In this document: in pieces, positions 9,930-32,360 of the stretch
Layout of the letters: each line of letters opens with the position of its first letter
How positions within the stretch are numbered: the first letter of the stretch is position 1
Origin: Escherichia coli
Lineage (GTDB): Bacteria; Pseudomonadota; Gammaproteobacteria; Enterobacterales; Enterobacteriaceae
Length of the DNA: 64,000 nt
Strand: one strand, 5' to 3'
Assembly (NCBI RefSeq): GCF_030384885.1
Contig: NZ_CP128613.1
The notes under the pieces: model-generated
What the model was told of the DNA's origin: nothing
The model's database searches: none
What the model saw: only the letters and a program-made list of their open reading frames with translations
Made by a program: the position numbers and the translations under genes

Positions 9930-12308
9930 ATGTCCAACAATGGCTCGTCACCGCTGGTGCTTTGGTATAACCAACTCGGCATGAATGATGTAGACAGGGT
10001 TGGGGGCAAAAATGCCTCCCTGGGTGAAATGATTACTAACCTTTCCGGAATGGGTGTTTCCGTTCCGAATGGTTTCGCCACAACCGCCGACGCGTTTAAC
10101 CAGTTTCTGGACCAAAGCGGCGTAAACCAGCGCATTTATGAACTGCTGGATAAAACGGATATTGACGATGTTACCCAGCTTGCGAAAGCGGGCGCGCAAA
10201 TCCGCCAGTGGATTATCGACACTCCCTTCCAGCCTGAGCTGGAAAACGCCATCCGCGAAGCCTATGCACAGCTTTCCGCCGATGACGAAAACGCCTCTTT
10301 TGCGGTGCGTTCCTCCGCTACTGCAGAAGATATGCCGGACGCTTCTTTTGCCGGTCAGCAGGAAACTTTCCTCAACGTTCAGGGTCTTGACGCCGTTCTC
10401 GTGGCAGTGAAACATGTATTTGCTTCTCTGTTTAACGATCGCGCCATCTCTTATCGTGTGCACCAGGGTTACGATCACCGTGGCGTGGCGCTCTCCGCCG
10501 GTGTTCAGCGGATGGTGCGTTCCGACCTCGCATCTTCTGGCGTGATGTTCTCCATTGATACCGAATCCGGCTTTGACCAGGTGGTGTTTATCACTTCCGC
10601 TTGGGGCCTTGGTGAAATGGTCGTGCAGGGCGCGGTTAACCCGGATGAGTTTTACGTACATAAACCGACACTGGCGGCAAATCGCCCGGCTATCGTGCGC
10701 CGCACCATGGGGTCAAAAAAAATCCGCATGGTTTACGCGCCGACCCAGGAGCACGGCAAGCAGGTTAAAATCGAAGACGTACCGCAGGAACAGCGTGACA
10801 TCTTCTCGCTGACCAACGAAGAAGTGCAGGAGCTGGCAAAACAGGCCGTACAAATTGAGAAACACTACGGTCGCCCAATGGATATTGAGTGGGCGAAAGA
10901 TGGCCACACCGGCAAACTGTTCATTGTGCAGGCGCGTCCGGAAACCGTGCGCTCACGCGGTCAGGTCATGGAGCGTTATACGTTGCATTCACAGGGTAAG
11001 ATTATCGCCGAAGGCCGTGCTATCGGTCATCGCATCGGCGCGGGTCCGGTGAAAGTCATTCATGACATCAGCGAAATGAACCGCATTGAACCTGGCGACG
11101 TGCTGGTCACTGACATGACCGACCCAGATTGGGAACCGATCATGAAGAAAGCATCTGCCATCGTCACCAACCGTGGCGGTCGTACCTGTCACGCGGCGAT
11201 TATCGCTCGTGAACTGGGCATTCCGGCGGTAGTGGGCTGTGGTGATGCAACAGAACGGATGAAAGACGGTGAGAACGTCACTGTTTCTTGTGCAGAGGGT
11301 GATACCGGTTACGTCTATGCTGAGTTGCTGGAATTTAGCGTGAAAAGCTCCAGCGTGGAAACGATGCCGGATCTGCCGTTGAAAGTGATGATGAACGTCG
11401 GTAACCCGGACCGTGCTTTCGATTTCGCCTGCCTGCCGAACGAAGGCGTGGGCCTTGCGCGTCTGGAATTTATCATCAACCGTATGATTGGCGTCCACCC
11501 ACGCGCACTGCTTGAGTTTGACGATCAGGAACCGCAGTTGCAAAACGAAATCCGCGAGATGATGAAAGGTTTTGATTCTCCGCGTGAGTTTTACGTTGGT
11601 CGTCTGACTGAAGGGATCGCGACGTTGGGTGCTGCGTTTTATCCGAAGCGTGTCATTGTCCGTCTCTCTGATTTTAAATCGAACGAATACGCCAACCTGG
11701 TCGGTGGTGAACGTTACGAGCCAGATGAAGAGAACCCAATGCTCGGCTTCCGTGGCGCGGGACGTTATGTTTCCGACAGCTTCCGCGACTGCTTCGCACT
11801 GGAGTGTGAAGCGGTGAAACGTGTGCGCAACGACATGGGACTGACCAACGTTGAGATCATGATCCCGTTCGTGCGTACCGTAGATCAGGCGAAAGCGGTG
11901 GTTGAAGAACTGGCGCGCCAGGGGCTGAAACGTGGTGAAAACGGGCTGAAGATCATCATGATGTGTGAAATTCCGTCCAACGCCTTACTGGCAGAGCAGT
12001 TCCTCGAATATTTCGACGGCTTCTCAATTGGCTCAAACGATATGACGCAGCTTGCGCTTGGTCTGGACCGAGACTCCGGCGTGGTGTCTGAACTGTTCGA
12101 TGAGCGCAACGATGCAGTGAAAGCACTGCTGTCGATGGCGATTCGTGCCGCGAAGAAGCAGGGCAAATATGTCGGGATTTGCGGTCAGGGTCCGTCCGAC
12201 CATGAAGACTTTGCCGCCTGGCTGATGGAAGAGGGGATCGATAGCTTGTCCCTGAATCCGGACACTGTGGTACAAACCTGGTTAAGCCTGGCTGAACTGA
12301 AGAAATAA
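9930..12308 (+). CDS. ppsA: Phosphoenolpyruvate synthase
   Basis: 792-aa ORF, PEP-utilising enzyme family with phosphohistidine region ([21 protein letters not shown]). Confidence 0.97.
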
Positions 12309-26426: not shown

Positions 26427-26563
26427 CGTGTAATGGCTGCATGAAATAAACAATAAAATATAAATAACATTATCAGCCTGCTGACGGCTTGAAGAGAGTC
26501 ACAGTATCTTGTGCAACATTATTGGAAAGAGTGAGGGGCGAGGTAGCGAAGCGGAAAAATGTT

Positions 26564-26669
26564 AAAAAAAAGCCCATCGTGGGAGATGGGCAAAGACTAC
26601 ACACAGCAATTCGTTGTTTCACTCAGGGGATTTCCATGCTTATAAATCAATATGTTGATTTATAACCGT
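26564..26669 (-). ncRNA. rprA: RprA small regulatory RNA (RpoS translational activator)
   Basis: minus-strand sequence ACGGTTATAAATCAACATATTGATTTATAAGCATGGAAATCCCCTGAGTGAAACAACGAATTGCTGTGTGTAGTCTTTGCCCATCTCCCACGATGGGCTTTTTTTT matches RprA as I remember it, with terminal hairpin and U-tract; located in ydiL-ydiK intergenic region. Confidence 0.9.
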
Positions 26670-27967: not shown

Positions 27968-28353
27968 AACTACTTTTCACCTTTTTTGTGCGTCAAATCG
28001 TCGACGCGACGTGAACACGCGAAACTCACCTGCATAATGATGAGCAATTTCAGCGGTTTTTAACAGGCCGATTCTGCCCTTAATTCTGATGGGCGTGTTA
28101 GAAAAAAATGTGGTACAACAAATCAGGCAACACGCAAACGATTTACTCGTCGTATTTCAAATTGCATGTGCTGCGGCTACGTTCGTTCACCCCAGTCACT
28201 TACTTTTGTAAGCTCCTGGAGTTCACTCGCTTGCCGCCTTCCTGCAACTCGAAATCCATAGAGTAAACAAACATCACCTTTCAGTGCGCTATTAGAAGCC
28301 TGAAAGAACAGTGTATCGATCTACATCACAGACCGCAGGAAAGGGTCAATATA

Positions 28354-31300
28354 ATGATTCCACAGATTTCCCAGGCACCCGGCGTCGTTCAATTGGTGCT
28401 TAATTTTTTGCAAGAGCTGGAGCAACAGGGTTTTACTGGCGATACGGCGACAAGTTATGCCGATCGTCTGACAATGTCGACCGACAACAGTATTTACCAA
28501 CTTCTCCCCGATGCAGTGGTATTTCCGCGTTCGACCGCAGATGTGGCGCTGATCGCTCGTCTTGCCGCGCAGGAACGCTATTCATCGCTGATCTTTACCC
28601 CCCGCGGCGGCGGCACCGGCACTAACGGTCAGGCGCTCAACCAGGGGATTATTGTTGATATGTCCCGCCATATGAACCGCATCATCGAAATTAACCCTGA
28701 AGAGGGCTGGGTGCGCGTTGAGGCCGGGGTGATAAAAGATCAACTCAATCAGTACCTGAAACCGTTCGGCTACTTTTTTGCGCCGGAGCTTTCGACCAGC
28801 AACCGGGCAACGCTCGGCGGGATGATCAATACCGATGCATCCGGTCAGGGATCGCTGGTCTATGGCAAAACGTCAGATCACGTACTTGGCGTACGCGCGG
28901 TGTTGTTGGGGGGCGATATTCTCGATACGCAACCCTTACCCGTCGAACTGGCAGAAACGCTGGGTAAAACCAATACCGCAATCGGGCGAATTTATAACAC
29001 GGTTTATCAACGTTGCCGTCAGCAACGCCAGTTAATCATCAACAACTTCCCCAAACTTAACCGCTTTCTTACCGGTTACGATCTGCGTCATGTCTTTAAC
29101 GATGAGATGACCGAGTTCGACCTGACGCGCATTCTGACGGGTTCAGAAGGGACGCTGGCCTTCATTACCGAAGCGCGGCTGGATATTACGCCCTTGCCTA
29201 AAGTGCGCCGTCTGGTGAACGTCAAATATGACTCTTTTGACTCCGCGCTGCGTAACGCGCCGTTTATGGTTGAGGCGAGGGCGCTTTCGGTAGAGACGGT
29301 GGACTCAAAAGTGCTGAATCTGGCGCGGGAAGATATTGTCTGGCATTCCGTCAGCGAGTTGATTACCGATGTGCCTGACAAAGAAATGCTCGGGCTGAAC
29401 ATTGTGGAATTTGCTGGTGATGATGAGACGCTGATTGATGAGCGGGTAAATGCACTCTGTGCGCGGTTGGATGAACTGATTGCCAGCCAACAGGCAGGTG
29501 TGATTGGCTGGCAGGTGTGCCGCGAACTGGCGGGTGTTGAACGTATCTATGCGATGCGCAAAAAAGCCGTTGGTCTGCTTGGCAATGCCAAAGGTGCCGC
29601 TAAGCCAATTCCGTTTGCTGAGGATACCTGCGTACCGCCGGAACATCTGGCCGATTATATTGCTGAATTTCGCGCGCTGCTCGACAGCCACGGCTTAAGC
29701 TACGGTATGTTCGGTCACGTCGATGCAGGTGTCTTGCACGTCCGTCCGGCGCTGGATATGTGCGATCCACAACAAGAGATTTTGATGAAGCAAATCTCTG
29801 ATGATGTAGTGGCGTTGACTGCGAAATACGGTGGTTTGTTGTGGGGCGAACACGGTAAAGGTTTTCGTGCCGAATACAGCCCGGCGTTTTTCGGTGAGGT
29901 ACTTTACGGCGAATTACGTAAAGTCAAAGCGGCATTTGATCCACAAAACCGGCTCAACCCAGGGAAAATTTGCCCACCGGAAGGTATCGACGCGCCTATG
30001 ATGAAAGTGGACGCGGTGAAGCGTGGCACATATGATCGACAGATCCCCATCGCGGTACGCCAGCAGTGGCGCGGGGCAATGGAGTGTAATGGCAACGGTT
30101 TATGCTTCAACTTTGATGCCCGCAGTCCGATGTGCCCGTCGATGAAGATCACCCAGAACCGGATTCATTCACCGAAAGGACGCGCAACGCTGGTGCGTGA
30201 GTGGCTGCGTTTGTTGGCAGATCGCGGCGTTGACCCACTCAAACTGGAACAAGAACTGCCTGAATCCGGCGTCAGTTTGCGGACGTTAATTGCCCGCACG
30301 CGCAATAGCTGGCATGCGAATAAAGGCGAATATGACTTCTCACACGAAGTCAAAGAGGCGATGTCGGGCTGTCTGGCCTGTAAAGCTTGTTCGACCCAGT
30401 GCCCCATCAAAATTGATGTGCCGGAGTTTCGCTCTCGTTTCCTGCAGCTCTATCACACACGTTATTTACGCCCATTACGTGACCATTTGGTGGCAACGGT
30501 TGAGAGCTACGCGCCGCTGATGGCACGCGCGCCGAAAACCTTTAACTTCTTCATTAACCAGCCGCTGGTGCGCAAACTCTCGGAAAAACATATTGGCATG
30601 GTTGATTTGCCGCTGCTGTCGGTCCCCTCGCTGCAACAACAAATGGTGGGGCATCGCTCGGCAAACATGACGCTGGAACAGCTTGAAGCTCTCAATGCAG
30701 AGCAGAAAGCGCGCACGGTGTTGGTGGTGCAGGACCCCTTTACCAGCTATTACGATGCGCAAGTGGTGGCGGATTTTGTCCGTCTGGTCGAAAAATTAGG
30801 TTTCCAGCCCGTGTTACTGCCATTTTCGCCGAATGGCAAAGCCCAGCATATCAAAGGCTTTCTTAATCGTTTTGCGAAGACGGCGAAAAAAACGGCGGAT
30901 TTTCTCAACCGAATGGCGAAATTGGGAATGCCAATGGTGGGCGTCGATCCAGCGCTGGTACTTTGTTATCGCGATGAATATAAACTGGCTCTGGGCGAGG
31001 AGCGTGGCGAGTTTAAGGTCTTACTGGCGAATGAATGGTTGGCAAGCATACTTGAGTCACAGCCAGTGGCTACAGTCAGCGGTGAATCATGGTATTTCTT
31101 TGGTCACTGTACCGAGGTTACCGCTTTGCCGGGCGCGCCAGCACAATGGGCTGCGATATTTGCCCGTTTTGGCGCGAAACTGGAAAATGTCAGCGTGGGT
31201 TGCTGCGGCATGGCAGGGACTTACGGACATGAAGCGAAAAACCATAAAAATTCGCTCGGGATCTATGAGTTATCCTGGCATCAGGTGATGCAGCGACTGC

Positions 31301-31410
31301 CGCGTAACCGCTGTCTGGCGACCGGATATTCCTGCCGTAGTCAGGTCAAACGGGTTGAAGGCACGGGGGTACGCCATCCTGTGCAGGCTTTACTGGAGAT
31401 TATTAAATGA
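28354..31410 (+). CDS. ydiJ: FAD-linked oxidoreductase fused to Fe-S/CCG domains (GlcD-GlcF-like; putative D-2-hydroxyacid dehydrogenase)
   Basis: 1018-aa ORF: N-terminal PCMH-type FAD-binding region (RGGGTGTNGQA), C-terminal ferredoxin-type CLACKACSTQCP and CCG motif GCCGMAG. Confidence 0.92.
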   Translation: MIPQISQAPGVVQLVLNFLQELEQQGFTGDTATSYADRLTMSTDNSIYQLLPDAVVFPRSTADVALIARLAAQERYSSLIFTPRGGGTGTNGQALNQGIIVDMSRHMNRIIEINPEEGWVRVEAGVIKDQLNQYLKPFGYFFAPELSTSNRATLGGMINTDASGQGSLVYGKTSDHVLGVRAVLLGGDILDTQPLPVELAETLGKTNTAIGRIYNTVYQRCRQQRQLIINNFPKLNRFLTGYDLRHVFNDEMTEFDLTRILTGSEGTLAFITEARLDITPLPKVRRLVNVKYDSFDSALRNAPFMVEARALSVETVDSKVLNLAREDIVWHSVSELITDVPDKEMLGLNIVEFAGDDETLIDERVNALCARLDELIASQQAGVIGWQVCRELAGVERIYAMRKKAVGLLGNAKGAAKPIPFAEDTCVPPEHLADYIAEFRALLDSHGLSYGMFGHVDAGVLHVRPALDMCDPQQEILMKQISDDVVALTAKYGGLLWGEHGKGFRAEYSPAFFGEVLYGELRKVKAAFDPQNRLNPGKICPPEGIDAPMMKVDAVKRGTYDRQIPIAVRQQWRGAMECNGNGLCFNFDARSPMCPSMKITQNRIHSPKGRATLVREWLRLLADRGVDPLKLEQELPESGVSLRTLIARTRNSWHANKGEYDFSHEVKEAMSGCLACKACSTQCPIKIDVPEFRSRFLQLYHTRYLRPLRDHLVATVESYAPLMARAPKTFNFFINQPLVRKLSEKHIGMVDLPLLSVPSLQQQMVGHRSANMTLEQLEALNAEQKARTVLVVQDPFTSYYDAQVVADFVRLVEKLGFQPVLLPFSPNGKAQHIKGFLNRFAKTAKKTADFLNRMAKLGMPMVGVDPALVLCYRDEYKLALGEERGEFKVLLANEWLASILESQPVATVSGESWYFFGHCTEVTALPGAPAQWAAIFARFGAKLENVSVGCCGMAGTYGHEAKNHKNSLGIYELSWHQVMQRLPRNRCLATGYSCRSQVKRVEGTGVRHPVQALLEIIK

Positions 31411-31817
31411 TATGGAAACGAAAAATCACCCTGGAAGCACTGAATGCCATGGGTGAAGGAAACATGGTGGGGTTACTGGATATTCGCTTTGAACATATTG
31501 GTGATGACACCCTTGAAGCGACAATGCCAGTAGACTCGCGGACAAAGCAGCCTTTCGGGTTGCTGCATGGAGGCGCGTCTGTGGTGCTAGCCGAAAGTAT
31601 CGGTTCCGTTGCCGGTTATTTATGTACCGAAGGTGAGCAAAAGGTGGTTGGTCTGGAAATCAATGCTAACCACGTCCGCTCGGCACGAGAAGGGCGGGTG
31701 CGCGGCGTATGCAAACCGTTGCATCTCGGTTCGCGTCACCAGGTCTGGCAGATTGAAATCTTCGATGAGAAAGGGCGTTTGTGCTGTTCGTCACGATTAA
31801 CGACCGCCATTTTGTGA
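31407..31817 (+). CDS. menI: Hotdog-fold thioesterase, 1,4-dihydroxy-2-naphthoyl-CoA hydrolase
   Basis: 136-aa ORF; start overlaps ydiJ stop (ATGA). Confidence 0.92.
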   Translation: MIWKRKITLEALNAMGEGNMVGLLDIRFEHIGDDTLEATMPVDSRTKQPFGLLHGGASVVLAESIGSVAGYLCTEGEQKVVGLEINANHVRSAREGRVRGVCKPLHLGSRHQVWQIEIFDEKGRLCCSSRLTTAIL

Positions 31818-31916
31818 CGTTGTCACCAGAAAAGTGTGACGCATATTGCTTTTGGTCATTATCTGCACAGTAAACGGTGGTATACTGTGCAGGTCTTGTC
31901 TAAAAGCGAGGATGCT

Positions 31917-32105
31917 ATGTCTACTCAACTTGATCCCACCCAGCTGGCCATTGAATTTTTACGCCGTGACCAGAGCAATCTTTCACCTGCCCAATATCTC
32001 AAACGTCTGAAACAATTAGAACTTGAATTTGCTGACCTGCTTACTCTCTCTTCTGCTGAATTAAAAGAAGAAATCTACTTTGCCTGGCGTTTGGGCGTGC
32101 ATTGA
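31917..32105 (+). CDS. ydiH: Small uncharacterised protein YdiH
   Basis: 62-aa frame from internal ATG (MSTQLDPTQLAIEFLRRDQSNL...) with GAGGA SD; track ORF extends 27 codons upstream. Confidence 0.78.
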   Translation: MSTQLDPTQLAIEFLRRDQSNLSPAQYLKRLKQLELEFADLLTLSSAELKEEIYFAWRLGVH

Positions 32106-32259: not shown

Positions 32260-32360
32260 ACTATTCTTATCGCCCCTTCAAGAGCTAAGCCACTGTGAGT
32301 GCCGGAGATAAGCGCCGGATGGGGTAGAAACCCTTAAGCCTGTGATGCACAGACTTAAGG
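32260..32360 (+). ncRNA. rydB: Candidate RydB-like small RNA locus (boundaries approximate)
   Basis: ydiH-sufA intergenic region; 5' hairpin (gccgg-agataagc-gccgg) and terminator-like hairpin aaacccttaag-cctgtgatgcacaga-cttaagggttt followed by tcttatttct; RydB is known to map between ydiH and sufA, exact sequence not recalled. Confidence 0.45.

Follow-up and report, generated by a model that had tools for sequence, protein, structure and literature searches.

The ydiJ locus

The 64,000-nucleotide stretch of Escherichia coli DNA analysed here (contig NZ_CP128613.1; hereafter, the window) carries the gene ydiJ as a single open reading frame (ORF) of 1018 amino acids (aa) with an ATG start, followed directly by menI (Table 1). 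It is very probable that this ORF is E. coli ydiJ, encoding a D-2-hydroxyglutarate (D-2-HG) dehydrogenase that contains flavin adenine dinucleotide (FAD) and Fe-S centres and a proposed electron wire to quinone, and that its coupling to menI is specific to one lineage. The system is already known and experimentally characterized, and the present analysis adds refinements of detail. D-2-HG is a toxic side product of bacterial serine synthesis and an oncometabolite in humans; YdiJ clears it in E. coli and in many other Proteobacteria, and already has applications in strain engineering and biosensors.

An earlier note on this DNA, made from the letters alone, had described the ORF as a fusion of a flavin dehydrogenase with Fe-S and CCG domains and had quoted three motifs, and both the 1018-aa frame and all three motifs are read directly in the window. 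The same note presented the enzyme as an open question. That part does not hold, as its purification, a substrate screen and the deletion phenotype were published in 2022 and extended in 2025.

Over ydiJ the DNA is 100% identical to that of E. coli 2013C-4282, and the annotation of a 100% identical RefSeq record gives the product name 'D-2-hydroxyglutarate dehydrogenase YdiJ'. The protein scores 1725.4 bits against the NCBIfam equivalog NF049975 (cut-off 1350), with aa 1–1016 placed on positions 1–1017 of the 1018-position model. It shares 98% identity with the common E. coli protein cluster and about 98% with YdiJ of K-12 (P77748), which has the same 1018-aa length. The gene order around it, with a divergent ydiK followed by ydiJ–menI, ydiH and sufABCDSE, is the standard E. 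coli layout, and the gene lies at the orthologous position when the context is checked in the 100% identical record and in a second strain.

Table 1. Features of the ydiJ–menI locus, in window coordinates
Feature	Position	Strand	Basis
Purine-rich Shine-Dalgarno-like stretch AGGAAAGGG, 8 nt before the ydiJ ATG	28337..28345	+	Read from sequence
ydiJ coding sequence, D-2-hydroxyglutarate dehydrogenase, 1018 aa	28354..31410	+	ORF, RefSeq name, NCBIfam NF049975
FAD_binding_4 domain (PCMH/VAO-type), aa 52–192	28507..28929	+	Pfam PF01565, E 2e-38
FAD-oxidase_C domain (substrate/cap), aa 281–539, with the His455/His462/Glu499 triad	29194..29970	+	Pfam PF02913, E 2e-67
Ferredoxin-like dicluster domain, aa 577–687	30082..30414	+	Pfam Fer4_8 (PF13183), E 2e-6
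First CCG-type domain, aa about 787–880, Cys-less (degenerate)	30712..30993	+	
Second CCG-type domain, aa about 910–1018, H918-C919 ... C950-C951-G ... C994	31081..31407	+	
GGAG Shine-Dalgarno for menI, inside the last ydiJ codons, 8 nt upstream of the menI ATG	31395..31398	+	Read from sequence
ATGA start/stop overlap of ydiJ and menI	31407..31410	+	ydiJ TGA 31408–31410, menI ATG 31407–31409
menI	31407..31817	+	NCBIfam NF007631, 312 bits (cut-off 226); Pfam 4HBT, E 1e-18; RefSeq annotation

The N-terminal flavin dehydrogenase half

The N-terminal half has the features of the VAO/PCMH class, namely an R-G-x-G-T-G loop within the FAD_binding_4 domain and a FAD-oxidase_C cap. The loop is part of the signature RGGGTGTNGQA at aa 84–94 (window 28603–28635), in which R84, G85–G87, T88, T90, G92 and Q93 are at least 90% conserved among 63 full-length homologs. 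E. coli GlcD aligns with YdiJ over ~500 aa at 26% identity (E 1e-27), placing RGAGTGLSGGA opposite this signature. Matches to GlcD models are likewise confined to this half (TIGR00387, E 8e-56), and the score against the GlcD equivalog is 190 bits versus a cut-off of 568. The earlier description of this half as a GlcD-like FAD dehydrogenase with a PCMH signature is borne out by these alignments and by the Pfam match.

In the cap domain, residues H455, H462, E499 and H500 are invariant among the same 63 homologs. In mouse LDHD and human D2HGDH they correspond by alignment to the motifs GH..G.lH and EHG.G, and the His/His/Glu residues there bind a catalytic metal. The His-x6-His ... Glu-His pattern of the LDHD/D2HGDH class is thus present in YdiJ as a putative active-site metal motif. 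Foldseek also groups the N-terminal half with LDHD and D2HGDH, with TM-scores of 0.83–0.89 normalized to the target. The best Foldseek matches span this half only (TMq about 0.4), and no solved structure covering both halves of a YdiJ-type fusion was found in that search.

The C-terminal Fe-S and CCG half

An exhaustive homolog search against 1.84 billion cluster representatives returned 2214 clusters at E ≤ 1e-30; among the best 150 of these, 125 are full-length fusions of 900–1100 aa with 33–58% identity to YdiJ. Across 126 aligned sequences, 11 cysteines are essentially invariant (C578, C584, C594, C673, C676, C679, C683, C919, C950, C951 and C994); conservation does not extend to C871 and C987. 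Not one of the 126 has a Cys in the first CCG domain. H918, which immediately precedes C919, is invariant in the 63 full-length homologs.

The ferredoxin-like domain contains two cysteine motifs. Motif 2 is canonical, C673-x2-C676-x2-C679-x3-C683-P, and corresponds to CLACKACSTQCP at aa 673–684 (window 30370–30405). Motif 1 is non-canonical, C578-x5-C584-x9-C594-P: in the alignment with E. coli GlpC and GlcF it spans C584-F-N-F-D-A-R-S-P-M-C594-P, such that the second and third Cys are replaced by Phe and Arg, and the additional C578 lies upstream. All seven cysteines of the domain are present in at least 125 of the 126 full-length homologs. This invariance across the family argues that the three-Cys motif 1 is probably functional rather than a decayed remnant, which would depart modestly from the published label of 'incomplete'.

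CCG domains follow the pattern C...CCG...CxxC, with five Cys per domain, as described in the literature on heterodisulfide reductase (Hdr). YdiJ departs from this pattern, as domain 1 has no Cys and domain 2 has four that are conserved, spaced C919-x30-C950C951-x42-C994. The motif GCCGMAG lies at aa 949–955 (window 31198–31218), and the extended GCCGMAGTYG aligns to the CCG motifs of both GlpC and GlcF.

Of these two relatives, GlpC is much the closer. The GlpC model PRK11168 matches aa 664–1016 with E 2e-31, at 109 bits versus a cut-off of 278, and BLASTP of GlpC against YdiJ gives E 6e-12 and 21% identity. The GlcF equivalog NF008434 reaches 14.9 bits (cut-off 333; E 0.0096) over only the 26 residues of aa 663–688, and BLASTP of GlcF aligns the ferredoxin part only (E 0.001). 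The GlcF hallmark, two CxxCxxCxxxCP motifs together with Cys in both CCG domains, is not found in YdiJ. Because the scores fall below both equivalog cut-offs, YdiJ is, as judged from sequence, a homolog of GlpC and of GlcF and an ortholog of neither. The GlcF-like half proposed in the earlier note therefore stands as a ferredoxin and CCG module, with GlpC in place of GlcF as the nearer relative; the two motif types it quoted are likewise present, with the qualifications that the first ferredoxin motif is non-canonical and that only one of the two CCG domains has kept its Cys.

An AlphaFold2 (AF2) model of aa 551–1018 (pLDDT 94, pTM 0.92) has a predicted fold matching EtfD and HdrB, and is thus HdrB-like; at this level the label 'heterodisulfide-reductase-type' given in the earlier note is supported. 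The full-length model has a pLDDT of 94.7 and a pTM of 0.94, which indicates that the FAD and Fe-S halves form one compact unit.

Published function of YdiJ

Purified YdiJ from E. coli and from Pantoea ananatis is strictly specific for D-2-HG, with a Km of 83 µM, and behaves as a homotetramer (Samsonov et al. 2022, PMC9504171). The enzyme is inactive on D-/L-lactate, D-/L-malate, D-/L-tartrate, D-/L-glycerate, L-2-HG, glutarate and pyruvate at 5–10 mM, and strains in which ydiJ is deleted accumulate 4–25 g/L of D-2-HG made by SerA (PMC9504171). In a 2025 study in Nature Communications, deletion of either the GlcD or the GlpC domain led to the same D-2-HG accumulation, which is suppressed by deletion of serA (PMC12297413). 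YdiJ was isolated with FAD and a 4Fe-4S cluster, according to Estellon et al. as cited in PMC9504171. Chemoproteomic data show C673 and C683 behaving as Fe-S ligands in vivo; it is in that work that the first ferredoxin motif is called 'incomplete'.

These studies confirm the single-polypeptide D-2-hydroxyacid dehydrogenase of the earlier note and narrow its substrate to D-2-HG only (PMC9504171). The note had suggested D-2-HG, D-lactate and glycolate as substrates for a screen: in the published one (PMC9504171) the first is oxidized, the second is not, and glycolate is not among the compounds listed. The D-2-HG accumulation that it proposed to look for in a ydiJ deletion has been reported (PMC9504171, extended in PMC12297413), and the FAD and Fe-S content on which it made its proposal depend has been described for the purified protein, as far as the citation of Estellon et al. 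in PMC9504171 goes.

The junction of ydiJ with menI

The gene overlapping the end of ydiJ is menI by its equivalog match; the model of the paralog EntH scores 196 bits on the product, below its cut-off of 237. The CTGGAGAT context of the menI Shine-Dalgarno is kept in Enterobacterales loci. A consensus scan found no promoter or terminator between ydiJ and menI, matches in the region being at chance level. According to Shimada et al., ydiJ and menI make up a single transcription unit, 'ydiJI', and ydiH has its own constitutive promoter, TTGTCA-16-CATATT (PMC3946193), a sigma-70-like element located here at window 31820–31847, ahead of ydiH at 31917–32105. Co-transcription of ydiJ and menI with an ATGA overlap, as the earlier note had it, thus agrees with both the sequence and the published unit.

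To place this arrangement in a wider context, one genome per species was surveyed, giving 79 loci with full-length YdiJ homologs at 36–96% identity. A MenI homolog lies directly downstream of ydiJ in 19 of the 79, of which 18 are strong cases and one, in a metagenome-assembled gammaproteobacterium (L017), is weak. The strong cases are from Escherichia, Citrobacter, Enterobacter, Superficieibacter, Photorhabdus, Providencia, Acerihabitans, Rahnella and an uncultured Enterobacterales genome, and from Haemophilus, Rodentibacter, Aeromonas and Psychromonas. The four-nucleotide ATGA overlap is seen in 11 of these 19 loci of other species; the remaining junctions comprise a 1-nt overlap (one locus), gaps of 1–69 nt (five) and gaps of 632–834 nt (two). 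No MenI homolog adjoins ydiJ in the surveyed loci of Vibrio, Shewanella, Pseudoalteromonas, Pseudomonas, Halomonas, Methylobacterium, Rhizobium and Gluconobacter, among others.

Vibrio and Shewanella make menaquinone, and Pseudomonas, Halomonas, Methylobacterium and Rhizobium are ubiquinone-only. Since ydiJ occurs without an adjacent menI in ubiquinone-only taxa, the pairing is not required for YdiJ function. We read the ydiJ–menI pair as an old, still maintained operon that is confined to one lineage. A conserved menaquinone-gene neighbourhood of ydiJ was considered and rejected, as menI is the sole men gene that recurs in the 79 loci.

Proposed mechanism and alternative explanations

The role of YdiJ is to clear D-2-HG, a by-product of SerA in serine synthesis, by oxidizing it back to 2-ketoglutarate. 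That first step, with its strict specificity, is documented (PMC9504171). By homology, the reaction would take place in the GlcD/LDHD/D2HGDH-like region of aa 1–540, where the conserved His455/His462/Glu499 metal site may position the substrate for hydride transfer to FAD. The two electrons would then leave FAD singly through the Fe-S clusters of the GlpC/EtfD/HdrB-like half, which may number up to three. Candidate ligands are C673, C676 and C679 together with C594 for one cubane cluster, C578, C584 and C683 for a second, three-Cys site, and C919, C950, C951 and C994 in the sole Cys-bearing CCG domain. Membrane quinone is the putative final acceptor and would be reduced directly, bypassing electron-transferring flavoprotein (ETF) and ETF–quinone oxidoreductase (ETF-QO). 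Because it has no transmembrane segment, YdiJ would act as a peripheral enzyme. The ATGA overlap couples the translation of menI to that of ydiJ, and is not needed for the chemistry of YdiJ.

Several observations weigh against this electron pathway. The protein as isolated held one 4Fe-4S cluster only (Estellon et al., via PMC9504171), and it purifies from the soluble fraction and was earlier called a putative cytosolic protein (PMC9504171). Published activity was measured only with the artificial acceptors phenazine ethosulfate and dichlorophenolindophenol (PES/DCIP), and direct quinone use through the GlpC domain is a proposal only, made by analogy with PP4737 (PMC12297413). The reactivity of C594 is unchanged in the chemoproteomic data, which misfits its assignment as a ligand of the first cubane. 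No membrane-spanning segment is predicted in YdiJ, for which the maximum 19-residue Kyte–Doolittle mean is 1.22. The Pfam CCG model PF02754 finds no match in E. coli YdiJ even at E ≤ 10, and matches 10 of 28 family members weakly (best E 3.7e-4); because this model misses YdiJ, the identity of the CCG domains rests on GlpC homology, motif alignment and fold.

Some of these same points could be accommodated if the Fe-S/CCG half delivered its electrons not to quinone but to a soluble partner (a ferredoxin, an ETF-like protein or a thiol/disulfide system), or if it served folding, oligomerization or regulation. Such a role would suit a protein that has no transmembrane helix, that held a single cluster as isolated (Estellon et al., via PMC9504171) and that has been assayed with artificial dyes only, and in HdrB the CCG clusters form a catalytic, disulfide-reducing site and not a simple relay. 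We nevertheless consider it rather unlikely. Deletion of the GlpC domain abolishes function in vivo (PMC12297413), and the invariance of 11 Cys at 33–58% identity would be difficult to account for if no clusters were bound. EtfD, the nearest structural relative, serves as an electron wire to menaquinone, and quinone use is reported for PP4737, a related fused D-lactate dehydrogenase, in a study cited in PMC12297413. Moreover, the ydiJ family occurs stand-alone, with no conserved partner gene.

The quinone wire can also be cast in a more specific form, in which three clusters, including the family-invariant three-Cys site at C578/C584/C683 and a four-Cys CCG site that could carry a non-cubane cluster, either linear [3Fe-4S] or [2Fe-2S], would reduce quinone, and in which the coupling to menI would reflect a preference for (demethyl)menaquinone in Enterobacterales. 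In this full combination the proposal is unlikely. Were it true, a wire of unusual cluster sites would let a soluble enzyme that lacks a membrane domain reduce quinone directly.

A functional link between ydiJ and menI might arise if YdiJ prefers (demethyl)menaquinone, or if removal of D-2-HG protects MenD, an enzyme that uses 2-ketoglutarate. Across Enterobacterales, 11 of the 19 linked loci keep the ATGA overlap and internal Shine-Dalgarno, the adjacency reaches Pasteurellaceae, Aeromonas and Psychromonas, and the structural relative EtfD feeds menaquinone. Against this, the two genes adjoin in only 19 of 79 species, the Vibrio and Shewanella loci are unpaired, YdiJ orthologs are common in ubiquinone-only taxa, and no other men gene recurs near ydiJ. 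We therefore give such a link little chance, and retain the view of a lineage-restricted operon.

Lastly, it is highly improbable that YdiJ is a broad-range D-2-hydroxyacid dehydrogenase acting on glycolate or D-lactate, in effect a fused GlcDEF: the GlcD model match and 26% identity to GlcD, the D-lactate dehydrogenases among the nearest solved folds, and one paper that files YdiJ under lactic acid metabolism, without testing, would favour it, but its GlcD and GlcF scores fall far under the cut-offs, it has no GlcE counterpart, and the inactivity of the purified enzyme on D-/L-lactate and the other listed acids (PMC9504171) means that the published substrate screen has already largely refuted this reading.

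Allelic variation and the wider neighbourhood

Of 5426 complete E. coli genomes, 5423 carry ydiJ, and the copy in the window has 95–99% identity to nearly all others. The allele itself is rare: identity of 99% or more is seen in a single one of the 5423 matching genomes, and the next closest strain is at 97.9%. Compared with the latter strain, the window copy shows 53 synonymous and eight non-synonymous codon differences, the non-synonymous ones being D230N, E516V, F518Y, A519G, H531Q, L545I, I626V and A978V, and none of the eight falls on a conserved Cys or His. A damaged or foreign allele was rejected in view of the 53 synonymous versus eight non-synonymous changes and of single-nucleotide polymorphisms that are distributed patchily over the whole 15 kb. 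The variation amounts to a recombination mosaic of an ordinary kind, subject to purifying selection.

The intergenic region between ydiK and ydiJ contains an enterobacterial repetitive intergenic consensus (ERIC) element at window 28154–28256, 100–200 nt ahead of the ydiJ start codon. On the minus strand, positions 28184–28205 match the ERIC2 primer sequence with one mismatch, and the ERIC region folds as an imperfect palindrome. An inverted-repeat search of this 5' intergenic region returned nothing, despite the ERIC repeat there. The intergenic region varies in length, with coverage of at least 80% in only 4255 of the 5424 E. coli genomes, and a portion of it is also present at other genomic sites and on plasmids. 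An Rfam scan gave no element in or adjoining ydiJ; further away, the small RNA genes rprA (26562–26669, minus strand, 118 bits) and rydB (32272–32332, plus strand, 83 bits) flank the block of ydiK, ydiJ–menI and ydiH. For YdiH, tblastn found a homolog in one of the 79 loci, a count that is unreliable as the query was out of frame with internal stops.

Other recurrent neighbours of ydiJ in the 79 loci are ppsA (18 loci), a LysR-type regulator (16), ydiK (13) and ppsR (10). Many gammaproteobacteria have ppsA ~0.9 kb upstream of ydiJ, and ppsR lies beyond ppsA (loci L008–L013, L021–L027, L033, L034, L038, L067, L070 and L081 of the survey). In the window ppsA is found at ~9930–12308, 16 kb upstream of ydiJ, and the interval holds the block fadK-ydiQRST-ydiP-ydiO-ydiF-aroD-ydiB-ydiN-ydiM-ydiL-rprA-ydiK. 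As ppsA adjoins ydiJ elsewhere but sits 16 kb away here, the comparison suggests that the fadK-to-ydiK block was inserted into an older ppsA–ydiJ neighbourhood in E. coli.

The LysR gene beside ydiJ is usually divergent, at a median distance of ~180 nt, and is seen mostly in Pseudomonas and Marinobacterium, but also in Delftia, Vogesella and others (L035, L037, L041, L044, L045, L047, L048, L052, L071, L072, L074, L077 and L080). Such a neighbour agrees with HgcR, the published D-2-HG sensor in P. putida. E. coli ydiJ has no adjacent LysR regulator.

Comparison with known systems

The gene in the window is the same as that of K-12 YdiJ (P77748), the E. coli enzyme studied alongside its P. ananatis counterpart as 'D2HGDH-Ec/Pa' (PMC9504171; NF049975), with K-12 length and chromosomal position and with allelic differences only. 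The P. putida ortholog PP_4493 is the same GlcD and GlpC fusion, about 51% identical, and oxidizes D-2-HG in vivo; Pseudomonas ydiJ loci were recovered at 51–52% identity in the 79-locus survey. PP_4493 serves as a D-2-HG dehydrogenase in D-lysine catabolism, with the LysR-type HgcR as its activator. It differs from the E. coli gene in that HgcR is divergently encoded beside it and menI is not a neighbour, whereas the E. coli gene has neither the regulator nor a role in a lysine pathway.

The D2HGDH enzymes of human, P. stutzeri and P. aeruginosa, and LDHD, share with YdiJ the VAO/PCMH fold and the His-His-Glu motif, and D2HGDH catalyses the same reaction. These GlcD-only proteins are half the size, 21–25% identical and devoid of an Fe-S domain, and they pass their electrons to ETF/ETF-QO. 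GlpC and GlcF, in turn, share with YdiJ the layout of a ferredoxin dicluster followed by two CCG domains and the GCCG.AGTYG motif. Both occur as separate subunits and have two canonical CxxCxxCxxxCP motifs and Cys in both CCG domains, whereas in YdiJ the module is fused to a flavoprotein, its first motif is C-x5-C-x9-CP and its first CCG domain is Cys-less.

The closest structural parallel for the C-terminal half is EtfD of Mycobacterium smegmatis (PDB code: 9OJN), in which two cubane and two CCG clusters make up an electron wire running from ETF to heme b and menaquinone (PMC13083937). One of its CCG clusters is a linear 3Fe-4S; the other, a non-cubane 4Fe-4S, has five Cys and a His as ligands. 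The second CCG cluster (D2) of EtfD is proposed to be the one adjacent to FAD, and the homologs FadF and DgcB are without the ligands of the first CCG cluster (PMC13083937). YdiJ resembles FadF and DgcB in this respect, unlike EtfD. EtfD has five transmembrane helices, heme b and a separate ETF donor; YdiJ has neither membrane domain nor heme and brings its own flavin dehydrogenase. At the second CCG site, the four Cys and a His of YdiJ compare with five Cys and a His in EtfD.

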